The notes under the pieces were generated by a model. It was not told the origin of the DNA and did not search any database. It worked only from the letters and a program-made list of their open reading frames with translations. A stretch of 64,000 nt of DNA from Escherichia coli (lineage in GTDB: Bacteria; Pseudomonadota; Gammaproteobacteria; Enterobacterales; Enterobacteriaceae), in assembly GCF_013122565.1 (NCBI RefSeq), contig NZ_CP053258.1; one strand, given 5' to 3'. Below, in pieces: positions 4,256 to 44,736 of the stretch; within the stretch, counting starts at the first letter, position 1, and each line of letters starts with the position of its first letter. The position numbers and the translations under genes are program-made.

Positions 4256-4370
4256 GTAAACTCCGGGCTAATTCTCTGCCGCTATCATAGCGGTTTTTCA
4301 GTGACGAAGAAGATGTTGTTACTTTTCAGCGCTTGCCGCGATGAAAACAGAGGCGTATTTTAATAATAAC

Positions 4371-4384
4371 GTTCGTATACGAAC
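4371..4384. promoter_or_regulatory. Perfect 14-bp palindrome GTTCGTATACGAAC in the divergent promoter region, 18 bp upstream of the UbiX-like start; candidate MarR-type operator
   Basis: Palindrome read directly from sequence; position between divergent regulator and operon. Confidence 0.45.
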
Positions 4385-4401
4385 AATTTAGAGAGTAAGC
4401 A

Positions 4402-4995
4402 ATGAAACTGATCGTCGGGATGACAGGGGCCACCGGAGCGCCTCTTGGTGTGGCATTACTGCAAGCACTGCGGGAGATGCCGAATGTCGAGACTCATCTG
4501 GTGATGTCGAAGTGGGCGAAAACCACCATTGAACTGGAAACGCCTTACAGCGCCCGCGATGTTGCTGCCCTCGCTGACTTCAGCCATAACCCGGCGGATC
4601 AGGCGGCGACCATCTCCTCAGGTTCCTTTCGTACCGACGGCATGATCGTTATTCCGTGCAGTATGAAAACGCTCGCAGGTATCCGTGCCGGTTACGCCGA
4701 TGGCCTGGTAGGGCGCGCGGCGGACGTCGTGCTCAAAGAAGGCCGCAAACTGGTGCTGGTGCCGCGTGAAATGCCGCTTAGCACCATCCATCTCGAAAAT
4801 ATGCTCGCACTTTCACGCATGGGCGTGGCGATGGTGCCGCCGATGCCTGCCTTTTATAACCATCCCGAAACGGTAGATGACATTGTCCACCATGTGGTAG
4901 CCCGCGTGTTGGATCAATTTGGCCTCGAACATCCCCACGCCAGGCGCTGGCAAGGATTGCCGCAGGCCCTGAATTTTTCTCAGGAGAATGAATAA
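4402..4995 (+). CDS. UbiX/Pad1-family flavin prenyltransferase paralog (B subunit of a phenolic-acid decarboxylase system)
   Basis: 197-aa ORF with UbiX-like flavoprotein N-terminus (MKLIVGMTGATGA); stop overlaps start of the UbiD-like gene. Confidence 0.85.
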   Translation: MKLIVGMTGATGAPLGVALLQALREMPNVETHLVMSKWAKTTIELETPYSARDVAALADFSHNPADQAATISSGSFRTDGMIVIPCSMKTLAGIRAGYADGLVGRAADVVLKEGRKLVLVPREMPLSTIHLENMLALSRMGVAMVPPMPAFYNHPETVDDIVHHVVARVLDQFGLEHPHARRWQGLPQALNFSQENE

Positions 4996-6422
4996 TGGCA
5001 TTTGATGATTTACGCAGCTTTTTACTGGCGCTTGATGACCACGGCCAGTTACTGAAAATCAGCGAAGAGGTGAACGCGGAACCGGATCTGGCAGCAGCAG
5101 CTAACGCCACCGGGCGTATCGGCGATGGCGCGCCCGCGCTGTGGTTTGATAATATTCGCGGTTTTACCGATGCGCGCGTGGCGATGAATACCATCGGTTC
5201 CTGGCAGAACCACGCGATTTCCCTCGGCCTGCCGCCAAACACGCCGGTCAAAAAGCAGATTGATGAGTTTATCCGCCGCTGGGATAACTTCCCGATCGCC
5301 CCGGAGCGCCGCGCCAATCCAGCCTGGGCGCAGAACACCGTCGATGGCGACGAGATTAACCTGTTCGATATTCTGCCGCTGTTTCGTTTAAACGACGGTG
5401 ATGGCGGTTTCTATCTCGATAAAGCGTGCGTGGTTTCCCGCGACCCGCTCGATCCGGATAACTTCGGCAAGCAGAACGTCGGTATCTACCGCATGGAAGT
5501 GAAGGGCAAACGTAAGCTCGGCCTGCAACCGGTGCCGATGCACGATATCGCCCTGCATCTGCATAAAGCGGAAGAGCGCGGTGAAGATCTGCCGATTGCG
5601 ATCACCCTCGGTAACGATCCGATCATCACCCTGATGGGCGCCACCCCGCTGAAATACGATCAGTCTGAGTACGAAATGGCGGGCGCACTGCGCGAAAGCC
5701 CGTACCCGATCGCTACCGCGCCATTGACCGGTTTTGACGTGCCGTGGGGTTCTGAAGTGATCCTCGAAGGCGTTATCGAAAGCCGCAAACGTGAAATCGA
5801 AGGGCCATTCGGTGAGTTTACCGGCCACTACTCCGGCGGGCGTAACATGACCGTGGTGCGCATCGATAAAGTCTCTTACCGCACCAGGCCGATTTTCGAA
5901 TCGCTGTACCTCGGCATGCCGTGGACCGAAATCGACTACCTGATGGGGCCTGCCACCTGCGTGCCGCTTTACCAGCAACTGAAAGCCGAGTTCCCGGAAG
6001 TGCAGGCGGTAAACGCCATGTACACCCACGGCCTGCTGGCGATTATCTCCACCAAAAAACGCTACGGCGGCTTTGCCCGCGCGGTGGGGCTGCGAGCAAT
6101 GACAACGCCGCATGGTTTGGGCTACGTGAAGATGGTGATTATGGTCGATGAAGACGTTGATCCGTTCAACCTGCCACAGGTGATGTGGGCGCTCTCCTCG
6201 AAAGTGAACCCGGCGGGCGACCTGGTGCAGTTGCCGAATATGTCCGTGCTGGAACTCGACCCAGGTTCAAGCCCGGCGGGGATCACCGACAAGCTGATTA
6301 TCGACGCCACCACGCCTGTTGCCCCGGACAACCGTGGTCACTACAGCCAGCCGGTGGTGGATTTACCGGAAACCAAAGCCTGGGCTGAAAAACTGACCGC
6401 TATGCTGGCCGCACGTAAATAA
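4995..6422 (+). CDS. UbiD-family prFMN-dependent decarboxylase (C subunit)
   Basis: 475-aa ORF with UbiD-family similarity; translationally coupled to the upstream UbiX-like gene. Confidence 0.85.
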   Translation: MAFDDLRSFLLALDDHGQLLKISEEVNAEPDLAAAANATGRIGDGAPALWFDNIRGFTDARVAMNTIGSWQNHAISLGLPPNTPVKKQIDEFIRRWDNFPIAPERRANPAWAQNTVDGDEINLFDILPLFRLNDGDGGFYLDKACVVSRDPLDPDNFGKQNVGIYRMEVKGKRKLGLQPVPMHDIALHLHKAEERGEDLPIAITLGNDPIITLMGATPLKYDQSEYEMAGALRESPYPIATAPLTGFDVPWGSEVILEGVIESRKREIEGPFGEFTGHYSGGRNMTVVRIDKVSYRTRPIFESLYLGMPWTEIDYLMGPATCVPLYQQLKAEFPEVQAVNAMYTHGLLAIISTKKRYGGFARAVGLRAMTTPHGLGYVKMVIMVDEDVDPFNLPQVMWALSSKVNPAGDLVQLPNMSVLELDPGSSPAGITDKLIIDATTPVAPDNRGHYSQPVVDLPETKAWAEKLTAMLAARK

Positions 6423-6432
6423 GGAGAACAAG

Positions 6433-6669
6433 ATGATTTGTCCACGTTGTGCCGATGAACAGATTGAAGTGATGGCGAAATCGCCGGTGAAAGATGTCTG
6501 GACGGTCTACCAGTGCCAGCATTGCCTTTATACCTGGCGCGATACCGAACCGCTACGCCGCACCAGTCGCGAACATTACCCGGAAGCGTTTCGCATGACG
6601 CAGAAAGATATTGATGATGCGCCAATGGTGCCGAGCATCCCGCCGCTGCTGGCGGCAGATAAGCGTTAA
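6433..6669 (+). CDS. Small zinc-ribbon protein, D subunit of the decarboxylase cluster (CPRC...CQHC)
   Basis: 78-aa ORF, four Cys in two CxxC pairs, 10 nt downstream of the UbiD-like gene. Confidence 0.7.
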   Translation: MICPRCADEQIEVMAKSPVKDVWTVYQCQHCLYTWRDTEPLRRTSREHYPEAFRMTQKDIDDAPMVPSIPPLLAADKR

Positions 6670-6710
6670 TAAAAAAGTGCTGGGTAGAGGCTTTGCTTTA
6701 CCCGGCCACG

Positions 6711-7367
6711 TTATTTAATTTTATAAAACGATAACCGTCCACTCTCCGGCGAGCCGGTATCAATATAAACTTGATTGGCAAATGTCTGGATATTGGTAAA
6801 CATCATATGCCCGAAGATAAAACAGTCTGCACCGTTTATTTCTTTTAACTCTCCCTTGAATGATTTCTGCACGCGATCAACAGGCCAGAGTAATTCTCTT
6901 TCTGCTATTTCTTTACCAAACTGATATTCATCACCCGGATAATCCGCATGTGCGATGACATATTTTATTCTGTCGTTAGTGATTTCAATAATATGTGGAA
7001 GGTGATGAAATTTCAGCAACAGATCTATTGCCTCTTGTTGCTCTGAATCATTTAAATCGAAAAACCAGTCACCACCGCTGGCAAGCCACATGTTGCCATC
7101 GCCGGTCGCGAACGCATCCAGCGCCATTGCTTCGTGGTTGCCTTTAACGGAGATAAACCAGGGCTGGTTTAGCAGGCGCAGGACGCTAAGACTCTCCGGC
7201 CCACGATCAATATTATCGCCGACAGAAATAAGTAAGTCGGTTTCGGGGAAAAAAGAGAGTTGATGTAAACGGGATTGTAATAACTGATATTCACCATGAA
7301 TATCACCAACGACCCATATATGGCGATAGTGACGGGCATTGATTTTTTGATAGCGTGTAGATGGCAT
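6711..7367 (-). CDS. pphB: Serine/threonine protein phosphatase 2 (calcineurin-like metallophosphatase)
   Basis: 218-aa ORF with GDIHG and GNHE metallophosphatase motifs; adjacent to mutS. Confidence 0.9.
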   Translation of the reverse strand: MPSTRYQKINARHYRHIWVVGDIHGEYQLLQSRLHQLSFFPETDLLISVGDNIDRGPESLSVLRLLNQPWFISVKGNHEAMALDAFATGDGNMWLASGGDWFFDLNDSEQQEAIDLLLKFHHLPHIIEITNDRIKYVIAHADYPGDEYQFGKEIAERELLWPVDRVQKSFKGELKEINGADCFIFGHMMFTNIQTFANQVYIDTGSPESGRLSFYKIK

Positions 7368-41552: not shown

Positions 41553-42638
41553 ATGTTCAAGCGTCGTTATGTAACATTGCTTCCCCTTTTTGTGTTGCTT
41601 GCCGCCTGTAGCAGCAAGCCAAAACCTACTGAGACTGAAACGACCACCGGAACGCCGTCTGGCGGCTTCCTGCTTGAGCCGCAGCACAATGTGATGCAGA
41701 TGGGCGGTGACTTCGCCAATAACCCGAATGCTCAGCAGTTCATCGACAAAATGGTGAACAAACACGGTTTCGATCGTCAGCAGTTGCAGGAAATTCTCTC
41801 CCAGGCGAAACGTCTGGATTCGGTACTGCGGCTGATGGATAACCAGGCACCAACCACATCGGTGAAACCGCCATCAGGTCCGAACGGCGCATGGCTGCGT
41901 TATCGCAAAAAATTTATTACGCCGGACAACGTGCAGAACGGTGTGGTTTTCTGGAATCAGTATGAAGATGCGTTGAATCGCGCGTGGCAGGTGTATGGCG
42001 TACCGCCGGAAATTATCGTCGGGATTATCGGCGTTGAAACCCGCTGGGGGCGCGTGATGGGGAAAACTCGCATCCTCGATGCGCTGGCAACGCTGTCATT
42101 TAACTACCCACGCCGCGCGGAATATTTCTCTGGCGAGCTGGAAACCTTCCTGCTGATGGCGCGCGACGAGCAGGACGATCCGCTCAATCTGAAAGGTTCC
42201 TTTGCCGGGGCGATGGGCTACGGACAGTTTATGCCGTCGTCTTACAAACAATATGCGGTAGATTTCAGCGGCGACGGGCATATCAACCTGTGGGATCCGG
42301 TTGATGCGATCGGTAGCGTGGCGAATTATTTCAAAGCGCATGGCTGGGTGAAAGGCGATCAGGTCGCGGTAATGGCAAACGGTCAGGCTCCAGGCTTGCC
42401 AAATGGCTTCAAAACCAGGTACAGCATTTCGCAGCTTGCTGCGGCAGGTTTAACGCCACAGCAGCCGCTGGGCAACCATCAACAAGCCAGCCTGCTGCGT
42501 CTGGATGTTGGAACAGGTTACCAGTACTGGTACGGTCTGCCGAACTTCTACACCATTACCCGTTATAACCACAGCACCCATTACGCAATGGCGGTCTGGC
42601 AGTTAGGACAAGCCGTGGCGCTGGCGCGCGTGCAGTAA
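41553..42638 (+). CDS. mltB: Membrane-bound lytic murein transglycosylase B (start MFKRRYVTLLPLFVLLAAC lipoprotein signal)
   Basis: Lipobox LLAACSS after the internal ATG; ORF track begins 35 codons upstream. Confidence 0.92.
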   Translation: MFKRRYVTLLPLFVLLAACSSKPKPTETETTTGTPSGGFLLEPQHNVMQMGGDFANNPNAQQFIDKMVNKHGFDRQQLQEILSQAKRLDSVLRLMDNQAPTTSVKPPSGPNGAWLRYRKKFITPDNVQNGVVFWNQYEDALNRAWQVYGVPPEIIVGIIGVETRWGRVMGKTRILDALATLSFNYPRRAEYFSGELETFLLMARDEQDDPLNLKGSFAGAMGYGQFMPSSYKQYAVDFSGDGHINLWDPVDAIGSVANYFKAHGWVKGDQVAVMANGQAPGLPNGFKTRYSISQLAAAGLTPQQPLGNHQQASLLRLDVGTGYQYWYGLPNFYTITRYNHSTHYAMAVWQLGQAVALARVQ

Positions 42639-42676
42639 CTATTTGCAAGAGGGGGGTTAAACTTCCCTCTCCTTTC

Positions 42677-42916
42677 TTACTGTTTATTCGAATTACGTAA
42701 TTGCTTGATTTTTTTCGACAGCGATATCGCATATCCCAGGCAGACAACGCCTAATGCAGCCTGGCCGAAGTCGAAAGGTTCAAGATAGCCAGAAGATAAA
42801 ATTTTACATACCACTGCAACCAGGGCGCTGACGCCGCCAATGGTGACCCACATGCGCATTTGCGTAGTCTGTTTGAGCACGTTTTGTGGGGGGTTATCCT
42901 TTTTCTTTGTTGCCAT
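42677..42916 (-). CDS. Candidate small inner-membrane protein (79 aa, two predicted TM helices, basic termini), not on my recalled K-12 gene list
   Basis: ATG preceded by GGGAGA Shine-Dalgarno about 8 nt upstream; two hydrophobic segments; sits in a 459-bp gap between mltB and pncC. Confidence 0.45.
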   Translation of the reverse strand: MATKKKDNPPQNVLKQTTQMRMWVTIGGVSALVAVVCKILSSGYLEPFDFGQAALGVVCLGYAISLSKKIKQLRNSNKQ

Positions 42917-43097
42917 TGCTTTTCTCTCCCTGTGAATACATATCAATGTGAACGCGGCATGGTAGCCTTTTTTCTTTACCGGTTGGTCGTAACAGTCTTA
43001 TTTCGGAATGCGACTCGTAAAATGAATCGCTCGTCCCCATCTTCTGCGGGAAAGTGCTATCTTGTCCGGCATAAATTTTTGACTGACAGAGGTTGTG

Positions 43098-43595
43098 ATG
43101 ACTGACAGTGAACTGATGCAGTTAAGCGAACAGGTTGGGCAGGCGCTGAAAGCCCGTGGCGCAACCGTAACAACCGCTGAGTCTTGTACCGGCGGTTGGG
43201 TAGCGAAAGTGATTACCGATATTGCCGGTAGCTCCGCCTGGTTTGAACGCGGATTTGTCACCTACAGTAACGAAGCCAAAGCGCAGATGATCGGCGTACG
43301 CGAAGAGACGCTGGCGCAGCATGGCGCGGTGAGCGAACCTGTCGTGGTGGAAATGGCGATAGGTGCACTGAAAGCGGCTCGTGCTGATTATGCCGTGTCT
43401 ATTAGTGGTATCGCCGGGCCGGATGGCGGCAGTGAAGAGAAGCCTGTCGGCACCGTCTGGTTTGCTTTTGCCACTGCCCGCGGTGAAGGCATTACCCGGC
43501 GGGAATGCTTCAGCGGTGACCGTGATGCGGTGCGTCGTCAGGCTACTGCGTATGCATTGCAGACCTTGTGGCAACAATTTCTACAAAACACTTGA
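43098..43595 (+). CDS. pncC: NMN amidohydrolase PncC (CinA-like C-terminal domain)
   Basis: 165-aa ORF (MTDSELMQLSEQ); immediately upstream of recA. Confidence 0.92.
   Translation: MTDSELMQLSEQVGQALKARGATVTTAESCTGGWVAKVITDIAGSSAWFERGFVTYSNEAKAQMIGVREETLAQHGAVSEPVVVEMAIGALKAARADYAVSISGIAGPDGGSEEKPVGTVWFAFATARGEGITRRECFSGDRDAVRRQATAYALQTLWQQFLQNT

Positions 43596-44736
<1,141 letters not shown>

Follow-up and report, generated by a model that had tools for sequence, protein, structure and literature searches.

Several characterized small proteins of enterobacteria act as accessory subunits of larger envelope proteins. AcrZ, MgtS, MgrB, KdpF, and CydX are small proteins of the inner membrane, each modulating a larger membrane protein. 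Small membrane proteins have received little study, and their functions have been investigated almost entirely in Escherichia coli K-12. Here, we analyzed a 64,000-nucleotide stretch of an E. coli genome (contig NZ_CP053258.1 of the RefSeq assembly GCF_013122565.1; hereafter, the window) and focused on a 79-codon open reading frame (ORF) on its minus strand, between mltB and pncC. Its translated product, hereafter the small protein, is MATKKKDNPPQNVLKQTTQMRMWVTIGGVSALVAVVCKILSSGYLEPFDFGQAALGVVCLGYAISLSKKIKQLRNSNKQ. K-12, the basis of most work on small membrane proteins, is without this gene.

The small protein shares several traits with the functional class of AcrZ, MgtS, MgrB, KdpF, and CydX: it is small, its gene stands alone and has a Shine-Dalgarno (SD) sequence of its own, it is predicted to be mostly membrane helix with basic cytoplasmic flanks, it is found in a single lineage, and it is dispensable in laboratory-type conditions. 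However, most members of the class have one helix, whereas two are predicted here, and there is no sequence similarity between them. The class was defined in K-12, where the gene is absent, and the small gene has neither an operon link to a transporter or sensor nor a known partner.

Class II holins and pinholins, such as S21 of phage 21 and gp17.5 of T7, resemble the small protein in length (about 70–90 amino acids, aa), in having two helices with a predicted topology that places both ends in the cytoplasm (N-in/C-in), and in their C-terminal tail rich in lysine and arginine. The small gene differs from them in being a vertically inherited chromosomal gene, outside any phage or lysis cassette. 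TisB, DinQ, and Hok are alike in their small hydrophobic product, and the small gene lies near recA. Type I toxins are mostly shorter than 60 aa, with a single helix. Compared with TisB, DinQ, and Hok, the small protein is larger and has two predicted helices, and its gene has a strong, exposed SD and no conserved LexA box.

Evidence for a selected protein-coding gene

We hold with high confidence that the small ORF is a genuine protein-coding gene under selection. The first-pass annotation of the window, made from the sequence alone, had proposed a real and uncharacterized gene for a small two-helix membrane protein, and the comparative data agree with it. The ORF is intact on the minus strand (Table 1), and the strong SD that had been described is present: GGGAGAG stands 7 nt ahead of the ATG, with a predicted duplex with the 3′ end of the 16S rRNA of −8.2 kcal/mol. 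GGAGAG is kept ahead of the start codon in three genera (Escherichia, Salmonella, and, in Citrobacter, C. amalonaticus), unlike the remaining upstream DNA, which is not alignable between genera. An alternative TTG start (42946, 89 aa) is without an SD, and the NCBI Prokaryotic Genome Annotation Pipeline (PGAP) uses the ATG instead.

At the level of the genus Escherichia, where we scanned one genome per species, intact 79-codon copies were found between mltB and pncC in E. whittamii, E. albertii, and two further species. E. coli CP61 and AVS0533 likewise have the unbroken ORF in the same gene context, as do seven Escherichia loci altogether; by their source names, E. fergusonii and E. marmotae are carriers too. 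A profile search of 1.84 billion representative proteins gave 9 matches, and a second one with a cross-genus profile gave 58 clusters. Outside Escherichia, the members came from Citrobacter (telavivensis, amalonaticus, and others), Salmonella enterica (salamae, indica, and enterica), and Pseudocitrobacter, together with one marginal match in Affinibrenneria that lies in a different genomic context. The E-values ranged from 1e-27 to 1e-41 for the window protein against the Escherichia clusters, and from 1e-17 to 1e-36 for the family profile against the Citrobacter, Salmonella, and Pseudocitrobacter proteins. The orthologous family is restricted to the Escherichia–Salmonella–Citrobacter–Pseudocitrobacter part of Enterobacteriaceae.

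Wherever the DNA was retrieved, the orthologue and pncC lay about 150–200 nt apart in divergent orientation, and recA and recX followed pncC, the exceptions being Affinibrenneria and one Salmonella lineage. In the Pseudocitrobacter-type loci (L010 to L013, positions 4268–6715; L018, 4268–6772), a metal-uptake-like operon of three genes (ZnuA, ABC-3, and ABC_tran) lies between the small ORF and mltB. Since this operon parts the gene from mltB, the stable linkage is with pncC and not with mltB. One lineage of S. enterica (L021/L022, 61–1425, plus strand) has a 454-aa gene 76 nt upstream of the small ORF and in the same orientation. This gene occupies the usual place of pncC; its product is hydrophobic in segments near the N-terminus and matched nothing in Pfam, NCBIfam, or PADLOC.

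The first-pass annotation had proposed conservation and the ratio of nonsynonymous to synonymous substitution rates (dN/dS, omega) as a check, and both speak for the gene: there are orthologues in four genera, and omega within and between Salmonella, Citrobacter, and Escherichia was about 0.1–0.5, mostly 0.1–0.35, where dS was unsaturated. The first three Salmonella loci were identical and uninformative for selection, and further Salmonella alleles were used. Nonsynonymous differences per site (pN) were below synonymous ones (pS) in every pair having synonymous differences. Pooled within Escherichia, pN/pS was 0.20 for the small ORF, compared with 0.019 for mltB, 0.072 for pncC, and 0.005 for recA. 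The variable sites of the small ORF were distributed 8:4:20 over the three codon positions (chi-square against an even distribution, p ~0.0015), and the E. coli and Salmonella proteins are about 50% identical. Judged from these alignments, the small protein is fast-evolving but clearly constrained. The other frames of the region hold many spurious ORFs of 60–90 aa; thus, the length of the small ORF is by itself no proof of a gene, and it is raised above chance by the comparative evidence, that is, by its intact and syntenic frame, its codon-position bias, and its pooled pN/pS.

An A7 homopolymer near the 3′ end of the gene is a slippage hot spot that leads to variant C-termini, and 8 of the 22 protein clusters first recovered differed from SKK onward. 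When we simulated an A8 run, the product ended in SKKNQAIT with 74 aa, exactly as in the E. marmotae variant P0010; a simulated A6 run gave a read-through form (SKKSSNYVIRINSK), as in the variants P0009, P0011, P0013, and P0015. On E. marmotae contigs, intact forms were found on 187 and 166 and the A8 form on 12. The A6 and A8 forms are in the minority as alleles, or they may come from sequencing errors in the homopolymer. Close relatives with frameshifts or stops had been named as a point that would count against a gene. The claim of a gene stands, because the variants found are in the minority and touch the last 10 residues only, with both helices unaffected.

Cryptic-clade Escherichia (P0005, P0063, P0065) have a common 82-aa allele with an in-frame insertion of three codons (QLRQQSLSNKQ) in the C-terminal tail; thus, this tail tolerates length change. 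In Salmonella (P0096, P0112, P0113; alignment columns 58–63), in-frame length variants of helix 2 were observed at the LGC repeat, one with 6 additional aa (LGLGCLGCLGCLGY) and one 3 aa shorter, which points to slippage at a short tandem repeat within this membrane helix.

A deletion in K-12-type genomes and the history of the locus

The first-pass annotation placed no annotated gene here in K-12 and suggested that the small protein may have been overlooked. Only the former was borne out. The mltB–pncC spacer of K-12 MG1655 measures 144 bp and has no annotated feature, vs. 456–459 bp in the window, where a long gap of about 460 bp had rightly been described. However, the DNA itself is absent from K-12: a single gap of 316 bp (Table 1) comprises the small ORF with 6 nt downstream and 70 nt upstream. 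Thus, K-12 is without a gene here because of a deletion and not because of a missed call, which is a lesson for annotation whenever a gene is said to be missing from K-12. Nor is the protein overlooked where the DNA exists. PGAP annotates an intact coding sequence of 240 nt as a “hypothetical protein” in all 60 of the records sampled from 573 carriers (WP_000201679.1, WP_000985460.1, and EC958_RS15035 are among these annotations), and the exact product of the window is deposited as QJU27286.1/WP_171460468.1. WP_000201679.1, WP_000985460.1, and the UniProt entry A0A4S1WTL6 are 87–97% identical to it and come from the same locus, and their records give no function, domain, or name. No publication on this protein was found by gene name, accession, locus tag, or peptide string. 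The small protein is thus an uncharacterized bacterial small membrane protein that is already in databases as a hypothetical protein.

The 316-bp segment was carried by 573 of 5,426 complete E. coli genomes (10.6%), always as a single chromosomal copy, and the flanks matched in 5,423 of them. The flanking genes of the window are 96.9–98.5% identical to those of E. coli genomes. The GC content of the segment is 45.6% vs. 55–57% in the neighboring genes. Occupation of the same site in four genera makes presence of the gene the ancestral state and its absence from K-12-type genomes a deletion. About 89% of sequenced E. coli, K-12 included, belong today to the lineage that lost it through a single deletion of 316 bp. 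The small gene is a dispensable accessory gene.

Most carriers (555 of 573, including EC958 and JJ1887) have the sequence type 131 (ST131)-type allele, and 18 genomes have the window-type allele. Within positions ~42000–43250, the ST131-type allele (AVS0533, EC958) differs from E. albertii at 19 of 1251 sites (1.5%), vs. 4.7–5.0% in the flanks; from other E. coli, it differs by 6.7–9.6% inside this region, vs. 0.2–2.7% in the flanks. This tract of ~1.25 kb is an import by homologous recombination from an E. albertii-like donor, and it brought in the small gene along with the 3′ half of mltB and the first part (5′ end) of pncC. The window-type allele may have been vertically retained. An import from a cryptic clade had been considered for it and was withdrawn, as it differs by 3.4% in the tract vs. 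3.6–6.4% in the flanks, with no contrast between the two.

A genome-wide association study (GWAS) of bloodstream infection reported mltB unitigs at an allele frequency of 0.105 in its supplementary tables S6/S7 (PMC10395866). This value is about that of the carriers (10.6%), and the GWAS signal may tag the ST131 recombinant tract rather than MltB function.

The predicted hairpin and competing explanations

At the protein level, the charged ends and the two hydrophobic helices of the first-pass annotation were recovered, with five lysine or arginine residues in each tail and hydropathy peaks at residues 23–40 and 53–66. The N-terminal tail (residues 1–22) has one acidic residue and the C-terminal tail (67–79) none, whereas the loop between the helices (41–52) has two acidic residues and neither lysine nor arginine. 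Across 32 sequences, the conserved motifs are LKQ..QLR.W before helix 1, GG in helix 1, GY.EP.D.GQ in the loop, and LG.GCLGY in helix 2, which are family features together with the basic C-terminal tail. G28, L55, and Y62 are invariant, and L14, K15, Q16, Q19, R21, G27, Q52, G56, and C59 are each shared by 90% or more of the sequences. AlphaFold2 (AF2) predicted two long helices, with a predicted local distance difference test score (pLDDT) of 63.5 when 8 sequences were used and 65.4 when 32 were used, and we used the model for helix boundaries only. From the positive-inside rule and this low-confidence model, we infer an N-in/C-in topology with a periplasmic loop.

Family and structure databases were searched with the window protein or its family. 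The best Pfam score was 13.9 bits for IncE (cut-off, 27), and the best NCBIfam score was 11.7 bits for PspM (cut-off, 80). In the PDB, the family profile had no sequence match except GlpG at E=2. PADLOC had no match for the window protein and a single “Effector” at E=0.049 among 13 family members; a defense system was rejected on this result. A PnuC-like nicotinamide mononucleotide (NMN) transporter, and with it a link to NAD salvage, was also rejected, the only match being phrog_1880 at a sub-significant E of 0.08–0.13 over 54 residues. No Rfam family was found at E≤1 across 42400–43300, and a known RNA element was rejected on this result.

Overall, we lean toward reading this locus as a genuine gene for an inner-membrane hairpin, ancestral and dispensable, that acts by helix packing. 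The 79 residues would form a helical hairpin in the inner membrane, with both basic tails in the cytoplasm, two glycine-rich helices spanning the membrane, and an acidic and aromatic loop in the periplasm. The GG of helix 1 and the LG.GCLGY of helix 2 would mediate packing between helices, and the short, glycine-rich helix 2 suits tight packing. The packing partner would be another copy of the protein (homo-oligomer) or a larger envelope protein, with the small protein as an accessory or modulating subunit. Our proposal that the protein acts inside the inner membrane by helix–helix association, in either of these two forms, is a tentative one. A role as an enzyme, holin, or toxin is unlikely.

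Several observations weigh against this reading. With only ~14 hydrophobic residues, helix 2 is short for crossing a membrane, and the AF2 model is of low confidence (predicted template modeling score, 0.28–0.34; pLDDT, 63–65). The omega of the small ORF (0.2–0.3) is 3–40 times that of the neighboring genes. A strict sigma-70 scan of the region returned 0 sites, footprinting across genera revealed no conserved hexamers in the upstream DNA next to the ORF, and no promoter of the small gene was identified. Neither a terminator scan nor folding gave a U-tract terminator on the gene's own (minus) strand; its expression is something that we infer. We found no partner protein, paralogue, or pathway-informative neighbor, and the idea of a modulating subunit draws on an analogy with other small membrane proteins. 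Besides, about 89% of complete E. coli genomes, K-12 included, are without the segment. Since most E. coli lost the gene, any function is conditional or weak.

The same losses would fit a relic, that is, a decaying ORF kept open by chance or by overlapping non-coding constraint: about 89% of E. coli lost the gene at no obvious cost, and to this can be added an omega well above that of the neighbors, the low GC (45.8%), the A7-run frameshifts, the helix-2 length variants of Salmonella, and the truncated or frameshifted forms in the same genus. Nevertheless, we consider a relic improbable. The frame is open at full length in four anciently separated genera, pN is below pS in all the comparisons with synonymous differences, with a third-position bias, and the SD is kept while the adjoining non-coding DNA is not alignable between genera. 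Intact alleles far outnumber frameshifted ones (187 and 166 vs. 12 contigs in E. marmotae), and the coding sequence is annotated as intact in each of the 60 E. coli carrier records sampled. A chromosomal holin- or pinholin-like protein, whose hairpin would oligomerize into membrane lesions, perhaps together with MltB in murein cleavage or protein release, is suggested by the size, the two helices, the predicted topology, and the highly basic C-terminal tail, all of which resemble class II holins, and by the adjoining mltB. One UniRef entry of the E. whittamii orthologue is named “Holin”, and 4 of 13 members match PHROG 1129 “holin” weakly over their full length (E 0.001–0.008). However, this match is confined to four near-identical Escherichia sequences and appears in 0 of 10 members from Salmonella, Citrobacter, Pseudocitrobacter, and Affinibrenneria. 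No phage homologue was found by tblastn against 50,697 phage records; fold searches gave a best E of 0.57 in a viral library and 2.2 in the PDB, with no named holin and nothing at E<0.5; and the family matched no Pfam holin family. No prophage gene, endolysin, or spanin is encoded at the locus, and the neighbors (srlA, srlE, mltB, pncC, recA, and recX) are core genes in every genus. The gene is convergent to mltB with the mltB terminator between them, is separated from mltB by the three-gene ABC operon in the Pseudocitrobacter-type loci, and has no dual-start motif. MltB is a lipoprotein exported by Sec/Lol, for which no holin is needed. A holin-like action seems to us decidedly unlikely, and a holin identity was rejected on the PHROG 1129 match that was not reproduced in the 10 non-Escherichia orthologues and on the lack of a phage homologue or fold match in these searches. 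The “Holin” label of one orthologue should not be propagated.

The position of a small hydrophobic protein beside the SOS gene recA brings to mind a stress-induced, membrane-active toxin of the type I toxin–antitoxin or SOS kind (TisB-, DinQ-like), all the more as a LexA-box-like site with one mismatch lies upstream (42980–42995). Such sites are common: 32 of the 33 LexA-like matches in the window have one mismatch, and about 18 matches in total are expected by chance. The ST131-type and E. albertii alleles do not conserve the upstream site, and Citrobacter is without it. SOS/LexA control of the small gene was rejected on this single, chance-level, non-conserved site. The sole exact CTGT-N8-ACAG of the window is a perfect LexA box (CTGTATGAGCATACAG) at 43598–43613, upstream of recA, the expected recA operator. 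Moreover, 79 aa with two helices exceed known type I toxins, the SD is strong with no stable sequestering structure predicted, no described antisense or small RNA family of Rfam was found across 42400–43300, and the gene is a single-copy syntenic orthologue instead of a mobile multi-copy module. A toxin is thus a very unlikely explanation. We give even less credence to the ORF being incidental to a conserved non-coding element, such as a regulatory spacer or an RNA for pncC–recA or mltB. The pncC-proximal third of the spacer is indeed strongly conserved across genera, and the strict sigma-70 scan gave no promoter for the ORF. However, only the minus-strand frame shows the codon-position pattern and an omega below 1, and there is no Rfam match. 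K-12-type genomes drop the ORF segment yet retain the pncC-proximal block and the mltB terminator; since this deletion spares both, these signals are separable from the ORF.

Going beyond the packing hairpin, one could picture the protein as the founder of a new class of envelope modulators encoded on the chromosome, with a reason for its place beside pncC–recA. A holin- or channel-like oligomer could gate periplasmic access for murein enzymes (MltB), or a subunit could tune an envelope or NAD-salvage transporter. If this were true, ST131 would have regained the gene from an E. albertii-like donor through selection for this activity in extra-intestinal E. coli. The support for such a class consists of the topology, the position, and the GWAS coincidence, and we see little chance of it being right.

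The hairpin gene is a reasonable study target: purifying selection acts on it in four or more genera of enterobacteria, it is without a domain, name, or literature, and it is carried by the pandemic ST131. The expected impact is limited, since most E. coli do without the gene and its phenotype is probably conditional.

Features of the locus and its surroundings

Table 1. Positions of the small gene, the predicted parts of its product, and the neighboring signals in the window.
Feature	Position	Strand	Remarks
Coding sequence of the small membrane protein	42677..42916	−	79 aa; ATG 42916–42914; TAA stop 42679–42677
SD GGGAGAG	42924..42930	−	7 nt before the ATG; read directly
Codons 23–40, predicted transmembrane helix 1 (WVTIGGVSALVAVVCKIL)	42797..42850	−	Kyte-Doolittle peak 2.3; AF2 helix 9–42
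Codons 41–52, acidic/aromatic loop (SSGYLEPFDFGQ), predicted periplasmic	42761..42796	−	Motif GY.EPYDGGQ common to Escherichia, Salmonella, and Citrobacter
Codons 53–66, predicted transmembrane helix 2 (AALGVVCLGYAISL), glycine-rich	42719..42760	−	Kyte-Doolittle peak 1.9; AF2 helix 47–78
A7 homopolymer, codons 68–70 (T7 on the plus strand)	42709..42715	−	Slippage hot spot, variant C-termini
G+C-rich hairpin between the convergent mltB and small ORF	42648..42670	.	Intrinsic terminator of mltB; T-rich tail on the plus strand
Segment present in the window and absent from K-12-type E. coli	42671..42986	.	316 bp; single-gap alignment to the K-12 spacer and blastn break points
pncC-proximal part of the divergent control region	42987..43097	.	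Kept across genera; present but diverged in K-12

The local gene order is srlE and srlA (minus strand), mltB (plus), the small ORF (minus), and pncC, recA, and recX (plus). The mltB terminator hairpin folds with −13.8 kcal/mol on the plus strand and −15.4 kcal/mol on the minus strand (z about −2.6), and both this hairpin and the pncC-proximal block are retained in K-12. Columns 1–103 of the spacer alignment (pncC-proximal) are conserved in Escherichia, Citrobacter, and the organism of P0027, and the window and K-12 are identical at 83 of the 111 positions of the block. The pncC promoter is probably located in this block, with an extended −10-like element (TGCTATCTT) on the plus strand. Another extended −10-like element, TGATATGTA at 42937–42945, was noted by eye; it is weak and we do not claim it as a promoter of the small gene.

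The spacer left in K-12-type genomes (window 42987–43060 vs. L003 2573–2650) is diverged, with 36 differences in 215 positions (16.7%), whereas the K-12-type flanking genes differ from the window by 1.5–2.0% only and the same spacer block is conserved among carriers across genera. This high divergence could reflect relaxed constraint after the loss of the small gene or an old allele. In the record labeled as K-12 MG1655 that we aligned (NZ_CP010438.1; L003, 3347–4588), a chloramphenicol acetyltransferase gene stands in place of recA, with pseudogene fragments from lambda (DUF1317, DUF1382) on its sides; the record is of an engineered recA knockout and not of wild-type K-12.

In E. coli NY1601 (NZ_CM135959.1), only the first 71 nt of the 501-nt query were matched (14% coverage), which suggests a third arrangement of the mltB–pncC spacer, e.g., another deletion or an insertion. 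Two unannotated records of 1.9–2.0 kb labeled as Escherichia phage ECO95 1-6-1 (OR845620.1 and OR845594.1) match the small protein at 50–58% aa identity; rather than phage genes, they resemble pieces of an enterobacterial chromosome (a Salmonella- or Citrobacter-like mltB–pncC region). Finally, a metagenomic contig with the exact protein of the window (L026, 2300–2824) has a SIS-domain gene after mltB, in place of srlA, and the sorbitol phosphotransferase system operon appears to be missing from it.

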